From Porticoccaceae bacterium (lineage in GTDB: Bacteria; Pseudomonadota; Gammaproteobacteria; Pseudomonadales; Porticoccaceae): a DNA stretch of 64,000 bases. Made by a program: the position numbers and the translations under genes. Shown here piece after piece: positions 3,892 through 61,053 of the stretch. Below the pieces are notes generated by a model that had not been told where the DNA came from, ran no database searches, and was given only the letters and a program-made list of their open reading frames with translations. Position 1 is the first letter of the stretch. Each line of letters begins with the position of its first letter. The stretch lies in assembly GCA_048549915.1 (NCBI GenBank), contig JBLYYE010000010.1, forward strand, positions 68,543 to 132,542, in the 5' to 3' direction.

Positions 3892-6417
3892 ATGCCCTCA
3901 CTGTTCACACGACTGATGCAATCTACCGTGCTGCGCTATCCGCGCAGCGCCCTGATAGCGGTGGCTACACTGACTGTGGCTATGGCGATTGGACTGGGCA
4001 ACTTTAAAATCGATGCCTCGGCAGACTCGCTCACTCTCGAACACGATGATGCGCTCAACTATTACCGAGAAGTGGCAGGCCGCTACGGCAGCAGCGACTT
4101 TTTAGTCGTCACTTTTGAGCCCAAACAGGGCGATCTGTTTGACGATGCAAACTTGTCGTTATTGGGCGAACTGCGCGATGAACTGGCCGCTATTAGCGGT
4201 GTCGAGCAAGTGGTATCGATCCTCGACCTGCCGCTGTTGTTTAGCCCCAAAGTGTCGGTCGGAGATTTGAGCGAACCGCTCAACACCCTGCTCAGTGATG
4301 GCGTTGTTCGCAGTGAAGCGCGCGACGAGTTTCTCACCAGCCCACTCTACCGAAATTTAATTCTCTCCCCCGATGGCACGACCACCGGTGTGCTTGCCAC
4401 ACTCTCGCTAGACAGCCGTTACCTTGAGCTGGTGGGGCTGCGCGACGGGCTGCGCCTAAAACGCGACACCCAAGGGCTAACCGGCGCCGAGATGGCCGAA
4501 TTAGAACGAGTGAGCACTGAATTTCTCGACTACCGCACCGCTAAAGCTGAGCGCGATAAACAGCGAGTCGCCCAAGTGCGCGCCATGATGGCTCCCTACA
4601 GCGATAGCGCCACTATCTATCTCGGCGGCCCCGACATGATCACCGCTGATATGATCGATTTTATTCGCAGTGATCTAGTGGTATTTGGCAGCGGCATCTT
4701 GGCGTTTATCGTACTGACTATGGCGGCCATCTTCCGTCGCTGGCGGTGGATAATCCTACCGTTGGCGACCTGTACAGTAACGCTGGTCTCAATGCTCGGG
4801 TTCCTGGCTTGGATAGATTGGCGGCTCACCGTTATCTCCTCCAACTTTGTCTCGCTGCTGCTGATTATCACTCTTGCCCTTACCATCCACCTAGTGGTGC
4901 GGTACCGAGAGCTGCACCGCGCCAACAGCGGTTGGGATCAGCTGCAACTGGTGTCAGCTACCGTAGGGTCGATGGCGCTGCCGTGCCTGTATACGGTCCT
5001 CACCACCATTGTCGCTTTCGCGTCACTGGTTGTCAGTGATATTCGCCCGGTCATCGACTTTGGCTGGATGATGACTATCGGCATTGCACTGGCACTGCTG
5101 CTGACATTCGTCGTCATGCCCGCCGGCATGATGCTTTTGCCCCGCGAAGCCGATATAGATGACAGTGACAACTCGGCATCGGTAACGCTGCGCTTTGCCC
5201 GCTTTACTGAAAAACGCGGCAATTGGGTGCTGCTAATTTCGGCACTGCTCGCCGCCCTGGCTGGTTTGGGTATTGGCCAGTTGCAAGTTGAGAACCGTTT
5301 TATCGATTATTTCCGCAGCGATACCGAGATTTATCGCGGCATGGAGGTAATCGACTCGGCGCTCGGAGGTACTACGCCACTGGATATTGTGATCCAGGCT
5401 CCCAGCTTTACACAGATTACCGCAGATGATCAGAGCGAAGATCCATTTGGTGAAGACCCGTTTGGTGAAGACCCGTTTGGTGAAGATCCGTTCGCCGAAT
5501 CGAACAGCGAACCACAACTCATTGATACCTACTGGTTCACCCGCGCCGGGCTCGCCGATTTAGACAAGCTGCACACGTTCCTCGAGAGCCAACCTGAGAT
5601 TGGCGTAGTCTCCTCGCTGGCGACTTTGAAGCGCGTTGTCGAATCACTGCTCGGACAACAGCTCAATGACTTTGAAATCGCCTTTATGCGCAAAAGCCTG
5701 AGCCCAGATATCTACCAGCAAATCGTCGCTCCTTATCTTATCGAAGAGCGCAACGAGGCGCGTATACAGCTGCGCGCCATGGAGACCCAAGGTCAACTGA
5801 AACGGGCCGAGCTGCTGGCGCGTATCGATCAGTTCATTGTTGAGGAGCTGGGCTACCGCAACAACGAGGCGCAATTTACTGGCCTGCTTGTACTCTACAA
5901 CAACATGCTGCAAAGCCTGTTCAAGTCACAAATTCTCACTCTTGGCGCTGTGTTTATTGGCATCGTTGCGATGTTCATTGTGTTGTTCCGCTCGCTGTCG
6001 ATTTCACTGATTGCAATTGTCCCCAACTTCTTAGCTGCCGGCATTGTACTCGGCGGCATGGGGCTGGCGCGTATCCCGCTGGATATGATGACGATCACCA
6101 TTGCTGCCATTACTGTAGGGATTGGCGTCGATCACGCCATCCATTACATCACCCGCTTCAAACGCGAGTTTGCAGTCGACAATAACTACGTAGCGACTAT
6201 GTATCGCGCCCATGCCAGCATCGGTAGAGCGCTGTTCTACACCGCCATCACGATAATTATCGGCTTCTCTATTTTGGCGTTTTCTAATTTTATCCCGTCG
6301 ATCTACTTCGGTCTTCTCACTGGGCTGGCGATGATTGCAGCACTATTTGGTTCAATGACGCTGCTGCCCAGACTCCTTATTCTCTTTAAGCCTTTTGGCC
6401 CAGGAAATCGCTCTTAA
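3892..6417 (+). CDS. RND/MMPL-superfamily exporter (predicted 12-TM, two large periplasmic loops)
   Basis: 841 aa. There are two hydrophobic blocks (about residues 250-420 and 690-830), each preceded by a large soluble domain. The family call is by architecture only. Confidence 0.7.
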   Translation: MPSLFTRLMQSTVLRYPRSALIAVATLTVAMAIGLGNFKIDASADSLTLEHDDALNYYREVAGRYGSSDFLVVTFEPKQGDLFDDANLSLLGELRDELAAISGVEQVVSILDLPLLFSPKVSVGDLSEPLNTLLSDGVVRSEARDEFLTSPLYRNLILSPDGTTTGVLATLSLDSRYLELVGLRDGLRLKRDTQGLTGAEMAELERVSTEFLDYRTAKAERDKQRVAQVRAMMAPYSDSATIYLGGPDMITADMIDFIRSDLVVFGSGILAFIVLTMAAIFRRWRWIILPLATCTVTLVSMLGFLAWIDWRLTVISSNFVSLLLIITLALTIHLVVRYRELHRANSGWDQLQLVSATVGSMALPCLYTVLTTIVAFASLVVSDIRPVIDFGWMMTIGIALALLLTFVVMPAGMMLLPREADIDDSDNSASVTLRFARFTEKRGNWVLLISALLAALAGLGIGQLQVENRFIDYFRSDTEIYRGMEVIDSALGGTTPLDIVIQAPSFTQITADDQSEDPFGEDPFGEDPFGEDPFAESNSEPQLIDTYWFTRAGLADLDKLHTFLESQPEIGVVSSLATLKRVVESLLGQQLNDFEIAFMRKSLSPDIYQQIVAPYLIEERNEARIQLRAMETQGQLKRAELLARIDQFIVEELGYRNNEAQFTGLLVLYNNMLQSLFKSQILTLGAVFIGIVAMFIVLFRSLSISLIAIVPNFLAAGIVLGGMGLARIPLDMMTITIAAITVGIGVDHAIHYITRFKREFAVDNNYVATMYRAHASIGRALFYTAITIIIGFSILAFSNFIPSIYFGLLTGLAMIAALFGSMTLLPRLLILFKPFGPGNRS
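5437..5496 (+). repeat. In-frame tandem repeat of 4 x 15 bp inside the RND exporter, encoding (EDPFG)x3 + EDPFA
   Basis: The units gaagatccatttggt / gaagacccgtttggt / gaagacccgtttggt / gaagatccgttcgcc were read directly from the sequence. Confidence 0.95.
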
Positions 6418-8319
6418 ATGTCTCTTCTCAATCTCAACGATGTCACTATCAGTTATGGCCAACCACCGCTTATCGACGGTATTACCTTGTCAATTGAGCG
6501 CGGCGAACGGGTCTGCCTAATCGGCCGCAACGGCGCCGGCAAGTCGACTCTACTCAAAGTCATTGTTGGCCAGATACAACCGGATGAGGGCGTGCGCAAA
6601 GTTGAAGAGGGGCTGGTTGTCGCACAGCTTGAACAGCAGGTACCCATCGGCTTAACCGGTTCGGTTTTTGATGTGATTGCCGCCGGGCTCGGCGAGCAGG
6701 GCGAACTGCTCAAACGCTACCATACCCTCACCCACGCTATGGCTGAGGGTGATTTTAGTGACGCCACTATGGCTGCTCTTGAGCGCTGCCAAAGTGCCCT
6801 AGATGACTGTGACGGCTGGGATACCAACCAACGCGTTGAGTCTATTATTACTAAAATGGAGCTCGACGCCGAGGCGGATATCGATGCACTCTCCGGCGGC
6901 TACAAGCGCCGCGTGCTGCTGGCGCGCGCATTGGTACGCAACCCCGATCTGCTCTTATTGGATGAGCCAACTAACCACTTAGACATTGAGGCGATTGGCT
7001 GGATCGAACAATTTTTACTCAACTGGCACGGGTCGCTGCTGTTTATCAGCCACGATCGCCAGTTCATGGAAAATCTCGCCACTCGCTTCATCGAGATAGA
7101 TAGAGGCCAGTTGCGGCAGTTTGATTGCAACTACGCCACCTACTTAGTGCGCAAAGAGGAGCAGCTCGAAACCGAAGCTAAGCAGCAAGCTCTGTTCGAT
7201 AAACGGTTATCTGAAGAGGAGCGCTGGATACGCCAAGGCATCAAAGCCCGCCGTACCCGCAACGAGGGCCGCGTGCGCGCCCTCGAAGAGATGCGCCGCG
7301 AACACGCCGAACGCCGCAAGGTAACCGGCTCGGCCAAAATGGCCATTCAGGATGGCAGCCGCTCCGGCAAGTTGGTCAGTGAAGTTAACGACATCACCAT
7401 CAAGTTTGGCGACAAAATCATTGCCGATGGCTTCTCCACGCTGATTCAGCGCGGCGATAAAATTGGTCTCATAGGCCGCAACGGCGTGGGCAAAACTACA
7501 CTGCTCAAAGCTATCTTGGGGGAGCTCACCCCCAGTAGTGGTTCGGTTCGCACTGGTCACAATTTACAGATCGCTTACTTTGACCAGTACCGCGCTGCAC
7601 TAGATGAAGAGCGCAGCGTCCAGGACAGCGTTGCCGATGGCCGCGACATGCTCGATATCGGTGGCAAACAGCGCCATGTCATCAGCTATCTACAAGATTT
7701 TCTCTTCGATCCCAAACGCTGTCGCCAGCCGGTAAGTGCACTCTCTGGCGGTGAGCGCAACCGCTTGCTGCTCGCCAAGCTGTTCGCTCAGCCATCTAAC
7801 TTACTGGTGCTCGATGAACCGACCAACGATTTAGATATCGACACGCTCGACCTGCTCGAGGAGCTACTAATCAACTACCCCGGCACACTTCTTTTAGTCA
7901 GCCACGATCGCGCCTTTATCAACAATGTTGTCACCAGCAGTATCGTCTTTGAGGGCACTGCCGAACAGCCGGGTCTGATCAATGAGTATGTGGGCGGCTA
8001 TGACGACTGGCTGCGACAACGAGATTACGCATCAGCCGCTACTGCTGTGCCAACAGAAAAAAAGAAGCCAGCGGTGACTGCAGCTGCGGCGCAAACCAAG
8101 CCGACCAAGCGCTCTTACAAAGAACAGCGTGAGCTAGACAGTTTGCCGCAAGAGATAGAGCAAGCGGAGACGCTGATTGAGCAGCTCGGCGAAACGATGT
8201 CGAGCAGTGATTTCTACCAACAACCACGGGAAAAAATTACCGATATCGAAGCTCAACTCAGCGCCGCTCAAGCCAAACTGGACGCGCTCTTTCAACGTTG
8301 GAGTGAGCTCGAGCCTTGA
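6418..8319 (+). CDS. uup: ABC-F family ATPase Uup
   Basis: 633 aa. It has two ABC cassettes (Walker A GRNGAGKST and GRNGVGKTT; signatures LSGGYKRR and LSGGERNR) and a C-terminal coiled coil. The ATG directly abuts the TAA of the upstream gene. Confidence 0.85.
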   Translation: MSLLNLNDVTISYGQPPLIDGITLSIERGERVCLIGRNGAGKSTLLKVIVGQIQPDEGVRKVEEGLVVAQLEQQVPIGLTGSVFDVIAAGLGEQGELLKRYHTLTHAMAEGDFSDATMAALERCQSALDDCDGWDTNQRVESIITKMELDAEADIDALSGGYKRRVLLARALVRNPDLLLLDEPTNHLDIEAIGWIEQFLLNWHGSLLFISHDRQFMENLATRFIEIDRGQLRQFDCNYATYLVRKEEQLETEAKQQALFDKRLSEEERWIRQGIKARRTRNEGRVRALEEMRREHAERRKVTGSAKMAIQDGSRSGKLVSEVNDITIKFGDKIIADGFSTLIQRGDKIGLIGRNGVGKTTLLKAILGELTPSSGSVRTGHNLQIAYFDQYRAALDEERSVQDSVADGRDMLDIGGKQRHVISYLQDFLFDPKRCRQPVSALSGGERNRLLLAKLFAQPSNLLVLDEPTNDLDIDTLDLLEELLINYPGTLLLVSHDRAFINNVVTSSIVFEGTAEQPGLINEYVGGYDDWLRQRDYASAATAVPTEKKKPAVTAAAAQTKPTKRSYKEQRELDSLPQEIEQAETLIEQLGETMSSSDFYQQPREKITDIEAQLSAAQAKLDALFQRWSELEP

Positions 8320-49161: not shown

Positions 49162-49998
49162 TTAGCGCCTGGCTCGGTCGAGTAGCTCACAGAGCTGCTC
49201 GACACCATCGATAAAACGCGGCCCATGACGGGCCGTAATATCTGCTGAAATAGCATAGCGATGATCGCCTGCCACAGCCGAGAGTGTCGGCCACTGCGCC
49301 CAGAGCGCTAAGCTGGCGATATCTTCGCGATCACTGCCCGCAGTGATCATAACTTGCGGATCAGCCATCAATACCGCTTCAGCGCTAACATAGGGCACGA
49401 GCGGTTTAGCGCTGGCAAAGATGTTGACGCCGCCGCACTCCGACAGTGCCGCGCTTATCAGATGCTCGCCGTTGTAGGTAATCAACGGTTCATCCCATAT
49501 TTGATAAAAATACCGCACAGGCGAGCTATCTCGGTAGCGTTTACGCAGCGTCGTCAATCGCTGGCGGAGCTCATTGGCGACACTCTGCCCCTGTTCAGGG
49601 CGACCGACCAGCGCAGAGAGATACTCAACTGTAGCGGGTATATCATCCAGTTGGCGAGCCTCAACCATCACCACCGGCATACCCAACTGCCGCAGTGGCG
49701 CGACCATTTTCTCTCCGTTGCCACTCTCCCAGCCAATCACTAGATCGGTCTGTAGTGCTACTATTTGCTCGTAATTGGCCCCGGCGTAATTACTGACCCG
49801 GGGCAGCTCTAGCGCAGCAGCCGGGTAATCACTGTACTCATCTGCCCCCACCAGCTGTTCACCTGCACCAATCGCATAGAGTATCTCAGTGATATGCGGG
49901 GCCAGCGAGACAATATTTCTCGGCGCCTCGAGCCCCTGTGCAGCAGTACTGATCAGCGCAGTTAAAACCGCACACCGATACCAACTCGCACCCCTCAT
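49162..49998 (-). CDS. btuF: Vitamin B12 ABC transporter periplasmic binding protein
   Basis: 278 aa. IVSLAPHITEILYAIGAGEQLVGADEYSDYP and the C-terminal RHGPRFIDGVEQLCELL are alignable by eye to E. coli BtuF. Confidence 0.8.
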   Translation of the reverse strand: MRGASWYRCAVLTALISTAAQGLEAPRNIVSLAPHITEILYAIGAGEQLVGADEYSDYPAAALELPRVSNYAGANYEQIVALQTDLVIGWESGNGEKMVAPLRQLGMPVVMVEARQLDDIPATVEYLSALVGRPEQGQSVANELRQRLTTLRKRYRDSSPVRYFYQIWDEPLITYNGEHLISAALSECGGVNIFASAKPLVPYVSAEAVLMADPQVMITAGSDREDIASLALWAQWPTLSAVAGDHRYAISADITARHGPRFIDGVEQLCELLDRARR

Positions 49999-50768
49999 AC
50001 CACCACCATCGGCAAACCGCTGCGCGGGTGGCTGACAATAGTGGAATCAACTTTAAAAACTTGGTCGATAAGCTCTTCACTCAATACCTCTGACGGCGCA
50101 CCCTGTGCAGCTACAGTGCCCTCACGCATCACCACCAACTGATCGGCTACCGACGCGGCCAAGTTGAGATCATGTACTACCATCAATACCGCCACGCCCT
50201 CGGCGGCTAAGCTGCGCGCCAATGACAGAGTCATCTGCTGGTGCTGCAGATCGAAGGCAGAGGTCGGTTCGTCCAACAGCAGCACACGGTTTCCCTCAGC
50301 GACCGGCTCCCATATCTGAGCTACCACTCGCGCCAACTGTACGCGCTGTTTCTCACCGCCCGACATAGAGGTGTAAGGGCGCCGCTGCAGATAACTGGCA
50401 TCTAATCGAGACAGCGCTGCACCAACAATTTCTCTGTCGCGCAGTGCGCCGCTCGCATGAGGTATGCGCCCTAAATCGACCACCTCTTCGGCACTGAAAG
50501 GAAAAGCCAGCGCCAGCTGCTGCGGCAAAACAGCCAGTTGGCGCGCGCGGGCAATATCGCCCCAACTATTGAGCGGTTTATCATTTAGCAACACCTCTCC
50601 GGAGCTGCTTTCAAGTTCGCCACAAAGCACTTTAAGCAGAGACGATTTACCAGCACCGTTGGGACCGACCACCACAGTGACTTGCCCACAAGCAATCTCT
50701 AAATCAATGCCACGCAGCAGCTCAAAGCCGGCGACATAGAGCGATAAATTGACGACTTGCAAGCTCAT
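49995..50768 (-). CDS. btuD: Vitamin B12/iron-complex-type ABC transporter ATPase
   Basis: ORF 49995..50855, with the likely ATG at 50768 (MSLQVVNLS...). Walker A is GPNGAGKSS and the signature is MSGGEKQR. A 4-nt overlap couples it to btuF. Confidence 0.8.
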   Translation of the reverse strand: MSLQVVNLSLYVAGFELLRGIDLEIACGQVTVVVGPNGAGKSSLLKVLCGELESSSGEVLLNDKPLNSWGDIARARQLAVLPQQLALAFPFSAEEVVDLGRIPHASGALRDREIVGAALSRLDASYLQRRPYTSMSGGEKQRVQLARVVAQIWEPVAEGNRVLLLDEPTSAFDLQHQQMTLSLARSLAAEGVAVLMVVHDLNLAASVADQLVVMREGTVAAQGAPSEVLSEELIDQVFKVDSTIVSHPRSGLPMVVV

Positions 50769-50769
50769 A

Positions 50770-51786
50770 CTAGATCCGCGTGCGCTGTTGATAGAGCAGC
50801 GCAACAAAAAATGGCGCCCCCAGTAGCGCGGTAATGATCCCCGTTGGCAGTTCAACCGGAGCCACTACGGTGCGTGCCAACGTATCTGCCGCGACCAGCA
50901 ACAATCCGCCGCCGAGCGCACTGCAGGGCAGCAAGTAACGGTGGTCGGGGCCGGCCAACATGCGCACCATGTGCGGCACAACTAGGCCGACAAAAGCGAC
51001 GATACCGGCACTGGCAACAGCACTGCCCACGCCCAGCGCTGTTAAAACTATCAGGCCGCGCTTGAGATTTTGCACGGCCACGCCGAGATGGCGCGCCTCA
51101 GACTCACCCAGTAGTAGAGCATTAAGCGACTGAGCAAAGCGCGGCAATACCACAGCCAATACAACCGCCAAACTCGTCATTAACAGGGCGCGATCAAAGC
51201 TCGCTCCGCTGAGACTGCCCATTTGCCACAAGCTAATACGGCGCAACGTCGCGTTATCGGCAAAGTAACTCAGCAAACTCCCTGCCGCCCCCGCCAGTGC
51301 TGTGATCGCGATGCCAGCCAGCAACATAGTCGCCACCGAGGTGCCCGATGTCGAAGTAGCCAGACGATAGACAACTGCCGTCGCAAGCAGACCACCGACA
51401 AAAGCGGCCAGTGCAGTGAGCGGTAGGCCCACCCATTCAGGTGCCCAGCTCCCGGCGAAAACAATGACGACACTGGCACCCACTGAGGCACCACTGGAGA
51501 CACCCACCAGCGAAGGATCTGCCAGCGGGTTGCGAAAAAGCCCTTGCATCACGGCGCCACACAGCGCCAGAACAGCACCTACTGCCGCCGCCAGCAGGAC
51601 TCGCGGCAGACGAATCTGCCAAAGAATAGAAGCGATATGATCTGCCTCGCCGTTGACCGCCAGCCACAACTGCTGCCAACTCAACGCACTGCTGCCAACG
51701 GTTATTGCAAACAGAGACAATAGCGGCAGCGCGACTGCAAGTGCCGTCGCAAGCCAGCGGGGATCGACCCGACGAACACTAGACAT
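50770..51786 (-). CDS. btuC: FecCD-family permease (vitamin B12 import)
   Basis: 338 aa, very hydrophobic, with FecCD/BtuC motifs (LPRVLLAAAVGAVLALCGAVMQGLFRNPLADP). Confidence 0.8.
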   Translation of the reverse strand: MSSVRRVDPRWLATALAVALPLLSLFAITVGSSALSWQQLWLAVNGEADHIASILWQIRLPRVLLAAAVGAVLALCGAVMQGLFRNPLADPSLVGVSSGASVGASVVIVFAGSWAPEWVGLPLTALAAFVGGLLATAVVYRLATSTSGTSVATMLLAGIAITALAGAAGSLLSYFADNATLRRISLWQMGSLSGASFDRALLMTSLAVVLAVVLPRFAQSLNALLLGESEARHLGVAVQNLKRGLIVLTALGVGSAVASAGIVAFVGLVVPHMVRMLAGPDHRYLLPCSALGGGLLLVAADTLARTVVAPVELPTGIITALLGAPFFVALLYQQRTRI

Positions 51787-51789
51787 TAT

Positions 51790-52383
51790 TTAGAAATCGA
51801 CACCGCGGCGCGCCTTGATGCCGCTGTTGTAGGCGTGCTTAACCTCTTTGAGCTCACTGACCGTGTCTGCCAAGGCCTGTAGCTCATTGCCACCACCGCG
51901 CCCTGTCACTACAACACTCTGCTCTGCAGGCCGATTGGCCAATGCATCTAAAACCGTCTGCTGGTCGAGATACTTAAAGCTAAGCATGTAGGTGAGTTCG
52001 TCCAACACCACCAAATGTACCGAAGGATCCTGCAAAAGCTCTGCAGCTACCGCCCAGGTGCGCTCGGCGGCGGCAATGTCGCCACTGCGATCCTGGGTGT
52101 CCCAAGTAAAGCCTGTGCCCATTTGGTAAAAAGTCACTTCAGGACATTTTTCGCGCACATAGAGTTCTTCTCCAGAGAGCTGCTCTCCCTTAATGAACTG
52201 CACCACACCAACCTTATAGCCGTAACCTAAGGCGCGCATCACCATGCCAAATGCGGAAGATGACTTGCCTTTTCCGTTGCCGGTCAAGACGATCATTACA
52301 CCCCGCTCGGTATCTGCTGCGGCAATAGAAGCATCGACGCTCTCTTTGAGCTTTTCCATCTTCTTCTGGTGTTTATCGCTCAT
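51790..52383 (-). CDS. cobO: Cob(I)yrinic acid a,c-diamide / cob(I)alamin adenosyltransferase
   Basis: 197 aa. It contains GNGKGKSSSAFG, VGVVQFIKG and LDELTYM, and has BtuR/CobO family length. Confidence 0.9.
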   Translation of the reverse strand: MSDKHQKKMEKLKESVDASIAAADTERGVMIVLTGNGKGKSSSAFGMVMRALGYGYKVGVVQFIKGEQLSGEELYVREKCPEVTFYQMGTGFTWDTQDRSGDIAAAERTWAVAAELLQDPSVHLVVLDELTYMLSFKYLDQQTVLDALANRPAEQSVVVTGRGGGNELQALADTVSELKEVKHAYNSGIKARRGVDF

Positions 52384-52413: not shown

Positions 52414-54345
52414 TCAGTCTGCCCACTGGTAACGGACACCAACGGCTATTTGGCGACTTGGCGTTGAGAAGCCAAATACCTCTTCGTAGTTAACATTCGC
52501 CGCATTCGTCGCCTTGGCATAAACCACCAGTTCGTCTGTCGCACGGTAGTTTACATTGATCGACACCAGCGTGAAGGCGTCGAGTTCAACATAACGGCTC
52601 CCAGAAGCATAGAAATGTTGATCGATCTGAGTGCCGCTGTGTTGTAAATTAATACTGCTCTGGAGTGTCTCTGAAATCTGCCAGTCCAAGCTCAGTGACG
52701 CGATATGGTTGGGTCGGCGCAACTCGTCTCGCTCACCCTCAGCGGCCTCTTCAGTCGAATCTATATAACTGTAGCTACCGTCTAGCGCTAAGAGTTCGTT
52801 GAGCTGCCAAGACCACCCCAACTCCGCACCCCGGCGCTGGCTCTCGCCTTCTTTATTGGCCGAACTGAAACCACCCAGGTCGCTGTTGTAAACAAATCCG
52901 TTAATTTCATCTTCGAGCGCGCTATCAAAAACGGTTAGGTCGACACTGACTCGATTATCCGGCGACTGCCAATCTAAACCCAGCTCTGATGTCGCCGAGC
53001 TTTCAGGCTGAAGGTCTGGGTTGCCAACAAAATTACTGTAAAAACCGTAGCGCTCAGAAAATGTCGGATTTTTCTCAGCCGTCGAATAACTGCTGCGCAA
53101 ACGCCACTGATCATTTAACTGATAGCTCACTTCAAAACGCTCGCTGCCACCGTCATCAAACTCGCTGTTGTCATCCACACGGCCACTAGCCGCCAGAGTT
53201 AGTTGATCAAAAAAGGTTTTGCGCAACTCGAGACCAACACTGTCTGTTTCGCGCTCGCGATCTTGATTGGGATCCAAAATCGAGCCCCAGAATTCGGTAA
53301 CGACACCACGTCGCTCAAACTCTTCGGTTTCGCGCTCTAGCAGCAACGTGGCACGCCCTGTCTGACTTTGGTAAGAGAGAAAATACTGCCATTGCTGCTT
53401 CTCTGCGGCGGTGCTGCCGTCGTAACTGGCGCTGGGATAGTTGCTGTTTTGGCTGTCGGCAATTGTCCACTTAACACGCTGACTGAGACCATTTTTATTT
53501 TCATAATCTACGCTCAGTCCATAATGGGAGTTATCAAAATCACTGAAACTAGGGGCGTCAACTATCAGGCCTGTGGCGCTGTCATTTTTATCAAACTCGC
53601 TACTTCCTGAACTATTGCGCGCCGAGAAATTCGCTCGCCACTGCTCGCTAGGGCGCCAACTACCCTTTAAACTCAACGTGGTATTGTCGTGACCGTCTCT
53701 TTCTGACCCCTCGCGAGCAATATTCTCTCCTTCACTGTCGAGTTTATTGGCTGCCAAACGCAGCGCAACCTGCTCGCTGGCAAAGCCCACGTTTAAACCG
53801 TGCTGCCAGGTGGCATTGCCGCCGCGCTCAACAACAAACCCCGCCGAAACCGGCGATTTGTTACTGCGAGTAATAATATTGACTACACCCGCCATCGCAT
53901 CGCTGCCGTAGAGGGCACTTTGCGAGCCGCGAATCACCTCAATTCGTTCTATATCTGCAGCACTCAGCGTGCCCCAGTTGAGACCGTCATCCTGCGAGGG
54001 GTCGTTGGCTTCAACGCCGTCAATGAGTACCAACAACTGATTGGCCTCAGCACCGCGCACACGGATATCACTCATCGAGCCCAGCACACCGGATTGGCTC
54101 ACTGCCATACCGGGAACATCGCGGAGCAGGTCAACGACAGAGAGCGCAGCGCGATTCTCTATGGTGTACTGATCGATAACACTAACAGCCGCTGCAGCTT
54201 GGTTACTGGCCAGCGGGTAATGAGAGGCCGTAACAGTAATCTCTTCGATAACGTCTTGTGCATAACTTGGCGCAACAGCGCAGAGAGGTAACAGAGCCAG
54301 CACTGTGCGACTGGCTTGATATATATAGATCAACAATGATTTCAA
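52414..54345 (-). CDS. btuB: TonB-dependent outer-membrane vitamin B12 receptor
   Basis: ORF 52414..54381. I prefer the TTG at 54345 (SD GGAG 7 nt upstream; MKSLLIYIYQASRTVLALLPLCAVAPSYAQD signal peptide), but the ATG at 54381 is possible. It has a TonB box (EEITVTAS), a plug, a beta-barrel and a terminal aromatic-rich strand. A B12 riboswitch precedes it. Confidence 0.85.
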   Translation of the reverse strand: MKSLLIYIYQASRTVLALLPLCAVAPSYAQDVIEEITVTASHYPLASNQAAAAVSVIDQYTIENRAALSVVDLLRDVPGMAVSQSGVLGSMSDIRVRGAEANQLLVLIDGVEANDPSQDDGLNWGTLSAADIERIEVIRGSQSALYGSDAMAGVVNIITRSNKSPVSAGFVVERGGNATWQHGLNVGFASEQVALRLAANKLDSEGENIAREGSERDGHDNTTLSLKGSWRPSEQWRANFSARNSSGSSEFDKNDSATGLIVDAPSFSDFDNSHYGLSVDYENKNGLSQRVKWTIADSQNSNYPSASYDGSTAAEKQQWQYFLSYQSQTGRATLLLERETEEFERRGVVTEFWGSILDPNQDRERETDSVGLELRKTFFDQLTLAASGRVDDNSEFDDGGSERFEVSYQLNDQWRLRSSYSTAEKNPTFSERYGFYSNFVGNPDLQPESSATSELGLDWQSPDNRVSVDLTVFDSALEDEINGFVYNSDLGGFSSANKEGESQRRGAELGWSWQLNELLALDGSYSYIDSTEEAAEGERDELRRPNHIASLSLDWQISETLQSSINLQHSGTQIDQHFYASGSRYVELDAFTLVSINVNYRATDELVVYAKATNAANVNYEEVFGFSTPSRQIAVGVRYQWAD

Positions 54346-54496
54346 AGGAGCAGCTCCACAAGCACTCTCACCCGAGCGCATTTAGGGTAAGCGGAGCAGC
54401 GATGGAGCAGAGACAAAAACAACAGTACTCGCGAGAATGCGAGCAGAGCATAAAGTCTAGGCAGCAAATCGCGCCCCGCGATTTGCTTGCAGTGTG

Positions 54497-54692
54497 TTAA
54501 GGCCGGTCTCCGGACTCACAAGCGAGTGGCTTTACACCACTCTGTCTGACAACCTTCCCGTGGCGTACCACAGTGGCGATCCTGTCAGACTACTCTTGTT
54601 TACCGTTGCGGGGGCAGTGTTGGGGTTGCACCAACTTCCCGTTTCATCACGCTGGCCTGAGACCAGCGGGACACCTTTACACGTAGCAAGTG
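54497..54692 (-). promoter_or_regulatory. Cobalamin (B12) riboswitch in the btuB leader
   Basis: The reverse-strand RNA reads ...GGGAAGUUGGUGCAACCCCAACACUGCCCCCGCAACGGUAA...GCCACUG...GGGAAGG...AGUCCGGAGACCGGCC. This gives the conserved core plus the B12 box (plus-strand 54501-54516). Confidence 0.85.
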
Positions 54693-54698
54693 GAAAGT

Positions 54699-56041: not shown

Positions 56042-57412
56042 CTAACTCAGCGCATCCAGTGCCTCAGAAATATTTCTCACCGCCACCACTTCCATCCCTG
56101 GCAATGGCTTCTTGGGGGCATTAGCTGCCGCGACAATCGCTTTGGTAAAACCGTGTTTGGCCGCTTCGCGAAGCCGCTCCGGGCCATTGGGCACAGGGCG
56201 AATCTCACCGGCCAAACCGACCTCGCCGAATACCACCAACTGGCGCGGTAGCGGTTGGTTGCGGAAACTGGAAATTACCGCCAGTATCACCGCCAAATCG
56301 GCACTGGTCTCCAATACCTTGACGCCGCCCACCACGTTGACGAAAACATCTTGGTCTCCCACCATGATACCGCCGTGGCGGTGCAGTACCGCCAGCAGCA
56401 TGGCCAGACGATTGTGCTCTAGCCCCACGGTTACACGGCGCGGGTTGCCCAAATGGCTGTCATCGACCAAGGCCTGTAGTTCAACTAACAGCGGCCGAGT
56501 GCCCTCCCAGACCACCATCACTACGCTGCCCGAAGCAACCTCATCACCGCGCTGTAAAAATATCGCCGAGGGGTTGGCGATCTCGCGCAGACCGCGGTCT
56601 GTCATCGCAAAAACACCCAGTTCGTTGGCGGCGCCAAAACGGTTTTTACTGCTCCGAAGTATCCTAAAATGGCTGTCGCTGCTGCCCTCGAGCATCAACG
56701 AACAGTCAATCATATGCTCGAGGACTTTCGGACCGGCGAGCGAACCATCTTTCGTAACATGGCCCACCAGCAGCAAAATTGTCCCGCTCTGCTTGGCGTA
56801 GCGGACCATCATTGCCGCACTCTCGCGCACCTGAGAGACACTCCCAGGCGCCGAAGTAACCTCATCGAGATGCATAACCTGAATCGAGTCGATCACCAGT
56901 ATTTTGGGGCGGCGCTGTTCAGCGGTAGCGCAGATCACTTCGACAGAGGTCTCGGCCATTATCTCGACTTTATCGGTCGGCAAGCCGAGCCGATTGGCGC
57001 GCATGGCTACCTGCTGGGGGGACTCCTCTCCAGTCACATAGAGCGTGCTTTGCTGTTCGGCCAGGGCGCACAATGTCTGCAACAACAGGGTACTTTTACC
57101 AGCCCCCGGCTCTCCGCCCAACAGTACCGCGGAGCCCGGCACCAAACCGCCACCCAGGACCAAGTCCAACTCGCTGTTGGCGGTAGTAATACGGGGTATT
57201 TCAGCTAGCTCTATCTCAGCTAAAGTACTGATCTGCCCATCTGCTGCACCAGCGAATCCGCCGCCGCGCGCTACCGGCGCACCTTTGCCCAGGCGCACTT
57301 CGCTGAGGGTGTTCCAGGCCTGGCATTCACTGCACTGGCCCTGCCATTTAGTGAAATCTGCGCCGCAATCGCCGCAGACATAGGCGCGCTTCTGTTTTGT
57401 AGCCACCGCCAT
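56042..57412 (-). CDS. radA: DNA repair protein RadA (Sms)
   Basis: 456 aa. It has a C4 zinc finger (YVCGDCGADFTKWQGQCSEC), Walker A GEPGAGKST, the KNRFG motif and a Lon-like C-terminal domain. Confidence 0.95.
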   Translation of the reverse strand: MAVATKQKRAYVCGDCGADFTKWQGQCSECQAWNTLSEVRLGKGAPVARGGGFAGAADGQISTLAEIELAEIPRITTANSELDLVLGGGLVPGSAVLLGGEPGAGKSTLLLQTLCALAEQQSTLYVTGEESPQQVAMRANRLGLPTDKVEIMAETSVEVICATAEQRRPKILVIDSIQVMHLDEVTSAPGSVSQVRESAAMMVRYAKQSGTILLLVGHVTKDGSLAGPKVLEHMIDCSLMLEGSSDSHFRILRSSKNRFGAANELGVFAMTDRGLREIANPSAIFLQRGDEVASGSVVMVVWEGTRPLLVELQALVDDSHLGNPRRVTVGLEHNRLAMLLAVLHRHGGIMVGDQDVFVNVVGGVKVLETSADLAVILAVISSFRNQPLPRQLVVFGEVGLAGEIRPVPNGPERLREAAKHGFTKAIVAAANAPKKPLPGMEVVAVRNISEALDALS

Positions 57413-57459
57413 TTCCTCGCAAAAAATTATTTTTCGTCAATGAAGAGAATACCTCAAAA

Positions 57460-57475
57460 CTGTATGAATATACAG
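57460..57475. promoter_or_regulatory. LexA (SOS) box in the radA / dnaT-like divergent intergenic region
   Basis: CTGTATGAATATACAG fits CTGT-N8-ACAG with an AT-rich spacer, close to the gammaproteobacterial consensus CTGTATATATATACAG. It lies 48 nt from the radA ATG and 65 nt from the plus-strand gene ATG. Confidence 0.6.
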
Positions 57476-57539
57476 CTTGCTGCCAACGCTAGTCTCCACA
57501 CTTCTTCTGACCTTTGATGGTTTCTGTTAAAGTGGCGAC

Positions 57540-58661
57540 ATGTCCCTTTTTCCCGAGAAAGTCCTCACCCTATCGCCCACTCTCGCCGCCGCTATTGGCG
57601 TCGAAGAAGCACTGCTATTACAGCTGCTTGGCGACTGGCGAGCACTGCAAAGTGGCGAGCAGCGCGATGGCTTCTGTTGGTATCAAATTGAACTCGCCCA
57701 GCTGCACCAGTGCGCCCCGTTCTGGAGCAGCGAACAGCTGCAGCGACTGGTCGCAAGTCTGCATGAGAAAGGCCTTTTACTTTACCGAGGCGGCCGCATT
57801 GGCAGCGACAACCTATTCACTTTTGCATTCAACGAAGCGAGCGGCAACCACCGTCCAGCGACAGTAACCGCTCCGCCGGCAGCGCCGCCAACGGTGAGCG
57901 CAACCAACCCCGCACCGGCCAAAACTATCGACAACAGCTGGCAGCCGAGTGAAGATGCACTGCGCCAACTCGGCCAACTCGGGGTAAGCCGCGAGTTCTC
58001 TCTCACCCAACTGCCACAATTTACCGCCTACTGGCGCGACCGCAATGTCTCGCGACACAGCTGGGAGTCTAAGTTTATCAAAGAGGTGTGGCGCCAGTGG
58101 CAGCAGCAGATGAGCACCGACCAACGTCGCGCTGCACAACAGCCGATGTCTGCCAGTTGGCGCCCCTCGGCTGATGCCCTGCGCATCCTTACCGAGCAAG
58201 GCGGTATCAACAGCAACTTTATTGAGGACGCTATCCCCGAGTTCGTCCTCTACTGGCGAGACCGCGGCGAACGCTCATCGACCTGGGATTCAAAGTTTAT
58301 CAGTCATATTCGCCACCAGTGGCAACACTATTGCGGGCTGATTCAAAACGACCACGCACCTCGAGTCATCAGTGCTGACTGGCAACCCAATCCAGCGGTC
58401 TACGATCTGCTCGAGATGGCCAACATCGAACGCCGTTTCGCAGAGCAGTTGATAGCCGAGTTTGTGCTCTACTGGCGCGAAAGCGGCAAGCCACAGAGCT
58501 CTTGGAGCAGTAAATTTTTACAGTTCGTCAAACGCCAATGGGCGCGCGATAACAGTGCAACGGTAGATAAATCTCATGGCCAAAACCACGCTCAACCATC
58601 AACTCGCCTCCGCAACCGCAGCTTTGTCGAAGACCTCACCGACCGCAGCTGGGCATCCTGA
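57540..58661 (+). CDS. DnaT-like protein: N-terminal wHTH-like domain, Pro/Ala linker, then three tandem DnaT C-terminal (ssDNA-binding) domain repeats
   Basis: 373 aa. The repeats are at residues 134-189, 207-262 and 281-336 (nt 57939-58106, 58158-58325, 58380-58547). Each follows the pattern W(Q/R)P..............F..YWR..........W.SKF......QW. This aligns by eye to E. coli DnaT DWQPDADFIRLAALWGV...[26 protein letters not shown]. Confidence 0.6.
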   Translation: MSLFPEKVLTLSPTLAAAIGVEEALLLQLLGDWRALQSGEQRDGFCWYQIELAQLHQCAPFWSSEQLQRLVASLHEKGLLLYRGGRIGSDNLFTFAFNEASGNHRPATVTAPPAAPPTVSATNPAPAKTIDNSWQPSEDALRQLGQLGVSREFSLTQLPQFTAYWRDRNVSRHSWESKFIKEVWRQWQQQMSTDQRRAAQQPMSASWRPSADALRILTEQGGINSNFIEDAIPEFVLYWRDRGERSSTWDSKFISHIRHQWQHYCGLIQNDHAPRVISADWQPNPAVYDLLEMANIERRFAEQLIAEFVLYWRESGKPQSSWSSKFLQFVKRQWARDNSATVDKSHGQNHAQPSTRLRNRSFVEDLTDRSWAS

Positions 58662-59247
58662 CAGTGCAGCGCAACCGCCGTTATCCGCAGAGCTGATTGA
58701 TGCGATCAACCAGGTATTTGCCTTATTTCGCGCCAACTACCACAACCAGTACTACAGCGCTTTTGGCAATGACCAAGGCTCTGTCGCGATCACTAAAAAA
58801 CTTTGGCTGCAAACACTGCGCAGTTTTCCCGCCGAGGTAATCTGTACAGCGGCCGAACGCATAATCGCCGAAAGTGAATATCTGCCAACGCTGCACAAAA
58901 TGCTCGACGCCTGTCGCCGCGCCGGGCTGCCTGGCCAACTGCCAAGCCCGCTGGCGGCTTACCGCGAGGCGTGCAATACCGCCAGCCCAAAAGCGGCACA
59001 GCACTGGAGCCACGCCGCGGTCTATCTTGCTGGGCGCGACTGCGGCTGGTACCGACTGGCCAACTTTAGTGAGCGCCAAGTACTGCCTGAGTACAGCGAA
59101 ATTTATCAGCGCTATGCCGACCGTGTTGCCGCCGGCGAAACACTGTGCGTAGAGCCGCCGCCGGCTCTCGAAGAGAGCCCTCATCGCCCCGCTAGCGCCG
59201 CGACAGCGGAACACAACATGGCATCACTCAAAGCCCTTTTTGATTGA
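58576..59247 (+). CDS. Bacteriophage lambda replication protein P-like protein (helicase-loader family)
   Basis: 223 aa. IDAINQVFALFRANY...KKLWLQTLRSFPAEVICTAAERIIAESEYLPTLHKMLDACRRAGLPGQLPSP parallels lambda P IINGVFSQLLATFPA...RRQWVLAFRENGITTMEQVNAGMRVARRQNRPFLPSPGQFVAWCREE..GLP. The only canonical start (ATG 58576) overlaps the upstream gene by 86 nt, so the start is uncertain. Confidence 0.5.
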   Translation: MAKTTLNHQLASATAALSKTSPTAAGHPDSAAQPPLSAELIDAINQVFALFRANYHNQYYSAFGNDQGSVAITKKLWLQTLRSFPAEVICTAAERIIAESEYLPTLHKMLDACRRAGLPGQLPSPLAAYREACNTASPKAAQHWSHAAVYLAGRDCGWYRLANFSERQVLPEYSEIYQRYADRVAAGETLCVEPPPALEESPHRPASAATAEHNMASLKALFD

Positions 59248-59280
59248 CCCATGGCAGACCCTCTAGCGCGAGAAATCTCT

Positions 59281-61053
59281 ATGAGCGAGACACAGATCAC
59301 ACACAACTCCAGCGCTCGGCGCATGGCAAAAACGGTACTCAATGGCTTTAACAGCTACTTTGCCGACTATCTCAATGCCACCCTAGCCGCCAAAGCGCGC
59401 TTCGAAAAAGCCGATTGGCAAGCGGTACAACAAGCCAATGTGATGCGCTTGGAGCTCTATAAAGAAAAAGTCCACCAGACTGTGCAGTTTCTCGGCATCG
59501 TCACTAATCGCGACATCCGCTCACTGGATTTGTGGCGCCAAGCCAAATCCGCCTACTCGCAGCTGGTCTCCAATTTCCCCAATTTTGAAATCGCCGAAAC
59601 TTTTTTTAACTCAGTTTTTGCCGATGTTCACGACCACGACAAAATAGATGACGATATTATTTATGTGCTCTCGTCGCAGATGCTGACCCAGCCGAGCTCT
59701 GAGTACTCCATCTACATACACTACCAAGGTAGTGACTGCCGCGATCTGTTTAGACGCCTACTCGAGGAGTCTGAATTCTCACTGCCTTTTGAAGACCTTG
59801 AAGATGACTTAGATGGCATTGTCGCCAATTTTGTCGCGCAACACGGTGAGCACTACAACAACGGCACTGTCGAGATAGGCATCGATCTACTAGAGTCAGT
59901 TTTCTACCGCGGCAAAGCCGCCTATATGGTCGGGCGCATCACCCTAGATGGCGATAGCCATCCTATGATTCTCGCTATCCTCAACAATGACCATGGCAGT
60001 TGCTACGTAGACACCGCGCTATTCAGCCAAGACGATATGAGCGTGATATTCAGCTTTGCTCGCAACCATTTTATGGTCGACGCTCCGCTGCCCTATCAAT
60101 ACGCGCATTTCTTAAAACAGCTGATGCCCAGAAAACGCGATTACGAAATCTACAACGCACTCGGTTTTCCCAAGCACGCTAAAACCGAATTCTACCGCGA
60201 ACTGGTCGGGCACCTGCGCAGTTCTGACGATCAATTTATTATCGCACCCGGGATCAAAGGTATGGTGATGACAGTATTCACCCTGCCCAGCTACAACATC
60301 GTCTTTAAAATTATTAAAGATAAATTTGCCCCACCCAAAGAGGTCACTCACGAGATTGTTCGCGACCGCTACCGATTGGTATCGCGCCACGACCGCATCG
60401 GCCGCATGGCAGACACCCAGGAGTTCGACAATTTAGTTTTCCCGCTAGCGCGGTTCTCTCCCGAGCTGATCGCAGAGCTTCAGAAAGTCGCCGCCTCGCA
60501 AATCGTTATCGATGGCGACCGCCTGATTATTCGCCACCTCTATACCGAGCGCTACATGACACCGCTCAACATTTATCTGGAGAACGCCGACGAAGCAGAG
60601 CAGCGCAACGCCATCGAAGAGTACGGCAACTGCATTAAACAGCTTGCCGCCGCCAACATCTTCCCCGGCGATATGCCGCTGAAAAACTTTGGTGTCACCC
60701 GCCACGGTCGAGTGGTTTTCTACGACTACGACGAAATCGAACTGCTCACCGACTGTAACTTCAGGCGTATTCCAGAGCCGGTGCACGAAGAGGACGAACT
60801 GCGCGCTGGCACCTGGTATACGGTGGGTCCACAGGATATTTTCCCTGAAGAATTTAGACTGTTCTTCTCTGGCAAACCAAAAGCGCGCAAGGTCTTTGAA
60901 GAGATGCACGGCGAGCTATACGACGTAGAGTTTTGGCACAACCTGCAAGAGAAAATACGCGCCGGTTATGTGGTTGATGTCTTCCCCTACCGGCGTGCCA
61001 AACGTTTTCCTCGCCACCAAGATGACGACCGCTTACAGATCTACTCGAGTTAA
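59281..61053 (+). CDS. aceK: Isocitrate dehydrogenase kinase/phosphatase
   Basis: ORF 59251..61053. ATG 59281 (MSETQITHN...) is favoured by alignment to the E. coli AceK N-terminus. Strong identity blocks include APGIKGMVMTVFTLPSYNIVFKIIKDKFAPPKE, GRMADTQEF and IFPGDMPLKNFGVTRHGRVVFYDYDEI. Confidence 0.9.
   Translation: MSETQITHNSSARRMAKTVLNGFNSYFADYLNATLAAKARFEKADWQAVQQANVMRLELYKEKVHQTVQFLGIVTNRDIRSLDLWRQAKSAYSQLVSNFPNFEIAETFFNSVFADVHDHDKIDDDIIYVLSSQMLTQPSSEYSIYIHYQGSDCRDLFRRLLEESEFSLPFEDLEDDLDGIVANFVAQHGEHYNNGTVEIGIDLLESVFYRGKAAYMVGRITLDGDSHPMILAILNNDHGSCYVDTALFSQDDMSVIFSFARNHFMVDAPLPYQYAHFLKQLMPRKRDYEIYNALGFPKHAKTEFYRELVGHLRSSDDQFIIAPGIKGMVMTVFTLPSYNIVFKIIKDKFAPPKEVTHEIVRDRYRLVSRHDRIGRMADTQEFDNLVFPLARFSPELIAELQKVAASQIVIDGDRLIIRHLYTERYMTPLNIYLENADEAEQRNAIEEYGNCIKQLAAANIFPGDMPLKNFGVTRHGRVVFYDYDEIELLTDCNFRRIPEPVHEEDELRAGTWYTVGPQDIFPEEFRLFFSGKPKARKVFEEMHGELYDVEFWHNLQEKIRAGYVVDVFPYRRAKRFPRHQDDDRLQIYSS

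Follow-up and report, generated by a model that had tools for sequence, protein, structure and literature searches.

The loader of the replicative helicase was sought by Brezellec et al. (2017, Genome Biol Evol 9:1561; PMC5509034) in the Cellvibrionales and Oceanospirillales that have neither dciA nor dnaC/dnaI. One clade-specific gene with a lambda P profile was found there, named dopE and proposed to encode a third type of replicative helicase loader. According to that study, a lambda-O-like gene named dopC comes before dopE in every case, and the product of dopC has an N-terminal helix-turn-helix (HTH) and a C-terminal DnaT motif (PDB 2RU8). The two genes lie in non-prophage contexts that fall into four classes, and their phylogeny is congruent with that of the hosts. 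Neither iterons nor DnaA boxes occur at dopC, the GC-skew origin lies at gidA-dnaA, and DopC was thought either to help initiation or to be linked to fork reactivation. Here, we analysed two overlapping genes in a 64,000-nt stretch of the Porticoccaceae contig JBLYYE010000010.1 (hereafter the window), which very probably are the SAR92/Porticoccaceae orthologues of dopC-dopE, a pair derived from lambda O/P and proposed to replace DciA as helicase loader.

The initial annotation of this DNA regarded the pair as apparently undescribed. This is wrong because the window matches dopC/dopE as published in 2017 for the same order, including the DnaT motif and the possible link to fork reactivation (PMC5509034). 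The reasoning of the initial annotation nevertheless arrived at the published idea anew. The window holds an already published system in a lineage not explicitly listed before, and no new system: Porticoccaceae and SAR92 were outside the genome set of Brezellec et al., and Simiduia was inside it. The three tandem modules, the conserved tail, the 86-89 nt overlap, and the radA neighbour with its LexA box are absent from the text of that study. Both open reading frames of the initial annotation were present at their coordinates, and the pair comprises the following features:

57540..58661, plus strand: dopC, 373 amino acids, the lambda-O-derived companion, with a winged-helix N-domain, a disordered linker, three DnaT modules and a conserved tail
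57576..57830, plus strand: DopC N-terminal winged-helix domain of the phage O-like initiator type (residues 13-97; helix/strand pattern in the AlphaFold2 model)
57936..58109, plus strand: DnaT-type module 1, binding single-stranded DNA (ssDNA) by type (residues 133-190; Y164/W165 and K178 invariant)
58149..58331, plus strand: DnaT-type module 2 (residues 204-264; Y238/W239 and K252 invariant)
58371..58550, plus strand: DnaT-type module 3 (residues 278-337; Y311/W312 and K325 invariant)
58576..58661, plus strand: dual-coding overlap of the dopC 3' end and the dopE 5' end (86 nt; dopE in the +1 frame)
58576..59247, plus strand: dopE, 223 amino acids, lambda-P-like helicase loader
58605..58658, plus strand: DopC C-terminal tail RLRNRSFVEDLTDRSWAS with invariant D-R-S-W-A (invariant alignment columns), a putative docking peptide for a P-type loader

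The search of DopE against PHROG 109, 'P-like helicase loader', gave an E-value of 1.1e-16, and a match to the Pfam family PF06992 (Phage_lambda_P) is precomputed for most of its close homologues. The AlphaFold2 model of DopE, built from 13 homologues with a mean predicted local distance difference test (pLDDT) score of 72.5, was compared with the PDB using Foldseek, and the top three matches were lambda P chains, all from the DnaB-lambdaP complex 9OA1 (E 1e-5, probability 1.0). The hhalign comparison of the DopE alignment with lambda P showed a weak full-length match (probability 10%, E 0.003, identity about 25%). The likeness of the second gene to lambda P, already noted in the initial annotation, is upheld by the agreement of PHROG 109 and the structure match, the PF06992 profile itself falling just under its cut-off. 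DopE is lambda-P-like in the same sense as the dopE product of the published pair and, by analogy, would bind and open the DnaB hexamer as lambda P does.

DopC matched the Pfam family PF17948, 'DnaT DNA-binding domain', in three stretches (E 8.4e-69); the repeat limits given above come from a hidden Markov model (HMM) built on the DopC repeats. The three tandem DnaT C-terminal domains that had been read from the sequence of the first gene are confirmed by this search, and the pattern W-x-P...F..YW...W..K...QW by the alignment. All three repeats keep the YW pair without exception, and the pair also occurs in the initiator of Stenotrophomonas phage vB_SmaS_QH16; the Lys that follows the next Trp is invariant too. 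E. coli DnaT with both residues of the YW pair exchanged (Y127A/W128A) no longer binds ssDNA (PMC4132743). The preprimosome structures of 2026 showed that DnaT C-domains form a helical filament on ssDNA, with four copies resolved and a nucleotide pair held at every domain-domain interface (PMC13377028). As the DnaT C-domains act as a multi-copy ssDNA filament, the three linked modules of DopC may be read as a short DnaT filament built into one chain.

A DopE relative was found in at least 558 species-representative genomes, and the locus comparisons were performed on the best 80 loci. Exactly three DnaT modules are present in all 78 full-length DopC orthologues of the loci. In a more diverse set of 150 proteins representing 50%-identity clusters, the N-terminal domain is present in 106, and the module number among these is three in 73, two in 18, one in 10 and four in five. 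A representative of 3622 amino acids (P0360) matches DopC in 37 stretches at 25% identity, mostly over residues 158-229 of DopC. The stricter repeat HMM finds no DnaT module in P0360, possibly a giant repeat protein or else matched on composition.

The N-terminal domain of DopC, overlooked in the initial annotation, is a winged helix of phage O-like initiators. The first 80 or so residues match phrog_6493, 'DnaD-like helicase loader' (E 1.7e-6, residues 3-81), and phrog_11233, and the N-terminus is 35-42% identical to 'replication initiation O-like' proteins of E. coli, Klebsiella and Pseudomonas phages. The partner of this winged helix could be double-stranded DNA or a protein such as DnaA. 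We also considered the first gene as a DnaT orthologue and rejected this assignment because its N-terminus is an O-like winged helix, with the DnaT N-domain absent, and because the loader encoded downstream is of the P type and not an AAA+ DnaC.

Several observations weigh against the identification of the pair as dopC-dopE or against the role proposed for it. DopE reaches 24.1 bits against PF06992 (E 3.6e-5), just below the gathering score of 26 bits, and a search of the PDB with the DopE sequence profile did not retrieve any chain of lambda P. The Foldseek search with the whole-chain DopC model returned only non-significant winged-helix and plasmid Rep matches, such a multi-domain query being uninformative, and the linker and tail of the AlphaFold2 model are of low confidence. 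The absence of dciA and dnaC/dnaI is taken from Brezellec et al. for the order as a whole and not from this genome. Later papers on helicase loaders cite DopE as merely 'suggested', and the literature searched contained no experimental test of DopE or DopC. Neither protein has a match in NCBIfam, and a phmmer search of DopC against the PDB gave marginal DnaT matches only (E 0.14-0.31).

Among the matches listed, the closest relatives of the pair belong to a SAR92-clade metagenome-assembled genome (98-100% identity) and to strain LSUCC0057 (84%), followed by many Porticoccaceae. Judged by these matches, the host is a SAR92-clade member of the Porticoccaceae within the Cellvibrionales, one of the orders in which dopC-dopE was described. 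Two core genes flank the pair, as the initial annotation had it:

56042..57412, minus strand: radA (sms), the divergent neighbour; context, outside the loader pair
59251..61053, plus strand: aceK, starting 3 nt past the dopE stop, the kept downstream neighbour in Porticoccaceae; context

The order radA (divergent)/dopC-dopE/aceK is kept across the Porticoccaceae, in about 75 species genomes. The radA/dopC/dopE part is also found in a Halieaceae metagenome-assembled genome and in Simiduia aestuariiviva, the locus of the latter being syntenic with the window. The more distant the taxon, the lower the sequence identity, which drops from SAR92 through the other Porticoccaceae to Halieaceae and Simiduia. 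In the GenBank phage collection, relatives are 25-42% identical over parts of DopC and DopE, and a relative, 38-40% identical, is encoded by just two of the 2.9 million viral contigs of IMG/VR. The question posed by the initial annotation, whether the pair is conserved next to radA or confined to prophages, is settled for the former, the phage relatives being just distant ones. Since the synteny is clade-wide and the phage relatives are distant, dopC-dopE is, by synteny and identity gradient, a resident, vertically inherited and non-prophage pair. The description of a domesticated pair of a DnaT-domain protein and a lambda-P-type protein next to radA is supported by the domains, the synteny and the lambda P fold.

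The surroundings of the pair agree with the absence of phage genes claimed for at least 10 kb on either side, as far as the window reaches. The 20 kb upstream contain cellular genes only (M6 peptidase, RapA, ABC-F proteins, AmtB, a cobalamin uptake cluster with a riboswitch, NhaA and RadA). The claim stands in full on this side. Downstream, the window ends 4.75 kb after dopE, and these 4.7 kb hold only the cellular genes aceK, an MscS channel gene and parC, so that for 10 kb on this side the loci of relatives (L002 and L003) are needed. Integrase genes, structural genes and att repeats are lacking at the locus, no tRNA gene is present within the 64-kb window, and the G + C content is steady across the locus. 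That dopCE might be a decaying remnant of prophage replication genes without cellular function could be argued from the phage ancestry of both proteins. Against this stand the unchanged location, flanked by core genes in some 75 species-level genomes from different families, and the lack of integrase, structural and tRNA genes and att repeats. The orthologues, moreover, are 43-60% identical with many invariant residues, intact open reading frames and a constant repeat number, and we regard a functionless remnant as extremely improbable.

Interference of a domesticated viral loader with some phages has been a subject of speculation (PMC5509034), and dopCE might accordingly be kept mainly as a device of phage exclusion, for example by competing with phage loaders for DnaB. 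Neither protein matched a PADLOC defence family, however, and the fixed position in the core genome together with vertical inheritance is unlike that of defence islands. Such a function would also leave the loading of DnaB without DciA or DnaC unexplained, and it is considered very unlikely.

Likewise, dopC is not a replication origin. No iterons were found, and the DNA repeats in dopC, spaced 219-222 nt apart, merely mirror the protein repeats. There is no DnaA-box cluster at the locus, where a single DnaA box with one mismatch occurs, and the cumulative GC skew is monotonic through dopC-dopE, without a minimum. In the whole window, 17 DnaA-box-like 9-mers (TTATCCACA, at most one mismatch) were counted against 8.5 expected, a number reached in two of 100 shuffles; they are scattered and unclustered.

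The dopC/dopE overlap measures 86-89 nt in 56 of the 80 loci, larger values elsewhere resulting from upstream in-frame ATG codons, and a start codon in the dopE frame past the dopC stop was seen in only two of the 80. The entropies at the three codon positions of the last 12 dopC codons are 0.46, 0.18 and 0.68, compared with 1.26, 1.11 and 1.65 in a roughly anchored control stretch. DopE residue 24 varies between A and E, which fits a synonymous change in a DopC Arg codon. As this variation in the DopE frame would be synonymous in the DopC frame, DopC looks to be the dominant constraint in the overlap.

The C-terminus of DopC in the overlap ends in an invariant ...LxDRSWAS. A motif of the D(R/T)SW type is present in all 80 loci, in 70 of the 150 diverse representatives and in none of 120 controls. 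Similar tails end the O-like proteins encoded directly upstream of P-like loaders, lambda O included:

IMG/VR contig L084 (HTH_36 protein): C-terminus ...RITDRSWAE, then stop; P-like loader downstream
IMG/VR contig L083 (lambda-O C-domain-like protein): C-terminal sequence ...LTDCSWATGL...; P-like loader downstream
Pseudomonas phage Ab31 O-like protein: C-terminus ...NDTSWAVGLEQDLF, then stop; P-like loader downstream
Pseudomonas phage D14P: C-terminus ...DDDW, then stop; P-like loader downstream
Lambda O: C-terminus ...LDLTNTDWIYGVDL, then stop; P downstream

Both O-like proteins without a P-like gene downstream lack the tail motif, that of QH16 ending in ...AFALLK and that of mEp460 in ...IPPGFRG. 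The C-terminal part of lambda O is the part that contacts P. Since O-like proteins that precede P-like loaders have this motif in common and the C-terminal part of lambda O contacts P, the DopC tail may be a docking element for the P-type loader; the small size of the phage comparison set, five proteins with a P-like partner and two without, weighs against this interpretation.

Among the phage-borne counterparts found, the pair on contig L084 (positions 5382-6447; IMG/VR UViG_3300020438_000005) comes closest to the dopC/dopE junction. Its two viral genes, one O-like and one P-like, overlap by 80 nt, and the O-like protein, which ends in a DRSWAE tail, has an HTH_36 domain and no DnaT module. 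The 'Primosomal protein I' of Escherichia phage mEp460_ev081 (L082:2992-3957) combines a DopC-like winged helix with a lambda-O-like C-domain (...FWVKNIMSPSKLREKW...) and the tail ...SEPDTEIPPGFRG, which we take to resemble the C-terminal end of E. coli DnaT. This likeness points, tentatively, to a correspondence between the tail of an initiator and the type of its partner.

The intergenic region between the divergent radA and dopC contains two candidate regulatory features:

57460-57475, no strand assigned: LexA-type operator CTGTATGAATATACAG, 48 nt from the radA ATG and 64 nt from the dopC ATG
57459..57486, minus strand: sigma-70-like promoter candidate for radA, TTGGCA-16-TACAGT, from a consensus scan only; its -10 element overlaps the LexA box

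The operator is the sole strict CTGT-N8-ACAG sequence in the window, where 1.06 are expected by chance in 64 kb, and it is judged to be real not from this count but because its position is conserved in other genomes. A strict box lies proximal to radA in 52 of 73 loci, with a CTGG variant in most of the others, and only 65 strict boxes occur in the 1.41 Mb of loci. The distance from the box to radA is 9-67 nt overall, whereas that to dopC ranges from 63 to about 2000 nt. This difference is most apparent in 35 loci (within L011-L073) that carry an insert of 0.7-2 kb between radA and dopC, consisting of a GNAT acetyltransferase gene, sometimes with a short-chain dehydrogenase gene, in which the box keeps within 24-58 nt of the radA start and lies 640-2000 nt away from dopC. 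The insert genes run in the direction of dopC and stop 44-53 nt short of it (e.g., L026:7729-8906 and L025:8379-8882). The box is absent in two Halieaceae loci (L077 and L078) and in that of Simiduia (L080), all of which keep radA, dopC and dopE adjacent. By its distribution, the LexA operator is a feature of Porticoccaceae anchored to radA and not a conserved attribute of dopCE. Its positional conservation upstream of radA suggests that radA (sms) belongs to the SOS regulon of Porticoccaceae; a literature search on whether LexA controls radA in Gammaproteobacteria was uninformative. The sequence CTGYTTTGTSGGNCAG, which recurs 76-104 nt upstream of dopC in the insert loci, was considered as a regulatory element and dropped, as it belongs to the coding sequence at the 3' end of the inserted gene.

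The initial annotation placed the pair behind a LexA box and suggested for it a role in helicase reloading or restart after DNA damage. The box is real and stands 64 nt upstream of dopC. SOS control of dopCE, however, is not established, because the box follows radA across the inserts and is absent from the Halieaceae and Simiduia loci; the comparative data correct the idea of a pair under SOS control in this respect. On the other hand, the lack of a box near dopC in the insert loci is not enough to exclude LexA control, since the inserts are co-oriented with dopC and close to it, with gaps of 44-53 nt, and read-through from the LexA region to dopC is conceivable. A dedicated SOS-induced module for replication restart, a non-DnaC analogue of dnaT-dnaC and not a general loader, would be in keeping with such read-through and with a good LexA box upstream of dopC. 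It would also agree with the use of DnaT-type modules by the E. coli restart primosome to bind ssDNA, and fork reactivation was raised as a possibility in PMC5509034. It is at odds with the fixed distance of the box to radA and its variable distance to dopC, with the overlap of the box and the promoter-like -10 element on the minus strand, and with the loss of the box in three loci. Moreover, the clade reportedly has neither dciA nor dnaC/dnaI, so some loader must serve oriC and loading there is expected too. A restart-only role is not supported, and we consider a module of this kind unlikely.

The divergent position of radA, the immediate neighbour in Porticoccaceae, Halieaceae and Simiduia, also raises the question of whether RadA, a hexameric helicase related to DnaB, is the target of DopE and DopC, in place of DnaB or in addition to it. 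RadA has a weak DnaB_C match, and radA and dopCE share the intergenic region with the LexA box. This proximity is not strict, however, as the GNAT and short-chain dehydrogenase genes separate radA from dopC in the 35 insert loci and four different genomic contexts of dopCE are known (PMC5509034); the lambda P fold, in turn, is known solely as a partner of DnaB. RadA as the target is therefore scarcely credible.

On the other side of the pair, dopE is closely trailed by aceK in most of the Porticoccaceae loci examined (L002-L079). Because aceK starts 3 nt after the dopE stop and the close spacing recurs in relatives, aceK, which encodes isocitrate dehydrogenase kinase/phosphatase, may be co-transcribed with the helicase-loader pair, away from aceBA. 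The cobalamin riboswitch (Rfam RF00174, 103 bits) is located at 54484-54693 on the minus strand, upstream of the gene of a TonB-dependent receptor (52414..54381), and is followed after the receptor by CobO and BtuCDF-like genes at 49162-52383; the locus is of the ordinary type for B12 uptake.

Taken as an orthologue of dopC-dopE, the pair would work as follows. DopE would bind the host DnaB hexamer and open the DnaB ring in the manner of lambda P. DopC would be the adaptor, its three DnaT modules binding the ssDNA exposed at the unwound oriC and/or at abandoned forks and D-loops, and its D-R-S-W tail, inherited from lambda-O-type proteins, would dock the DopE-DnaB complex so that the helicase is delivered to the ssDNA. 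The long conserved dopC/dopE overlap would couple translation of the two genes, and the LexA operator in the shared intergenic region would primarily control radA. Because the clade is reported to have no dciA or dnaC/dnaI (PMC5509034), dopCE is expected to act at oriC, and it probably serves restart as well.

A more specific combination of these elements can be offered only tentatively, as possible and less than probable. DopC would be a single-chain mimic of the DnaT C-domain filament, holding a few nucleotides of ssDNA with its three covalently linked modules and acting without PriA, PriB or the DnaT N-domain, whose D-x-S-W tail hands over DopE-DnaB both at oriC and in PriA-independent restart. 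As part of the same proposal, the tail would represent a general docking code of O-type and P-type proteins in phages, and the Porticoccaceae unit may be co-regulated with radA through the LexA operator. For the universal problem of placing a ring helicase on DNA, DopCE has been proposed as a third solution besides DciA and DnaC/DnaI, and the fixed set of three modules that keep the ssDNA-binding residues, the tail common to lambda O and other O-like proteins, and the dual-coding overlap provide handles for its biochemistry.

The pair can be compared with several known systems. With lambda O/P it shares the order of an O gene followed by a P gene, the lambda P fold of DopE and the end of DopC, LTDRSWAS, which resembles the lambda O end LTNTDWIYGVDL. 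Unlike in DopC, the N-domain of lambda O belongs to a different winged-helix subfamily, and the lambda O gene holds the ori-lambda iterons, of which dopC has none. The central and C-terminal domain of lambda O has three DnaT modules in its place in DopC, the lambda O/P overlap is 4 nt as against 86 nt for dopC/dopE, and the identity between DopE and lambda P is only about 25%.

In E. coli dnaT-dnaC, the gene of a DnaT-type ssDNA-binding protein likewise precedes that of a phage-derived helicase loader, and the counterparts of Y127/W128 are kept in each DopC repeat. However, the N-domain of E. coli DnaT, which oligomerises and contacts PriB, is absent from DopC, and the C-type modules, which DnaT brings together by oligomerisation, are covalently linked in DopC, three to a chain. 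DnaC is an AAA+ loader, whereas DopE is of the P type and without an ATPase domain.

Phage O-like initiators with a single DnaT domain (PHROG 1032), such as the 'DnaD-like primosome initiator' of Stenotrophomonas phage vB_SmaS_QH16, have the same succession of a DopC-type N-domain and a PF17948 domain, but they are phage-encoded, with one DnaT module, no D-R-S-W tail and no P-like gene downstream. VdhL1 and VdhL2 of Vibrionaceae (PMC11087808, PNAS 2024) are also virus-derived loaders that replace DciA and moved together with an O-like companion gene; they belong to another protein family, and their replacement was sporadic, repeated and horizontal, in contrast to the vertical, clade-wide dopCE. 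The dopC-dopE pair of Brezellec et al. (PMC5509034) agrees with the pair of the window in the P-like gene that follows an O-like gene with HTH and DnaT domain, in the resident context, in the bacterial order and in the lack of iterons and origin, and differs from it in nothing essential.

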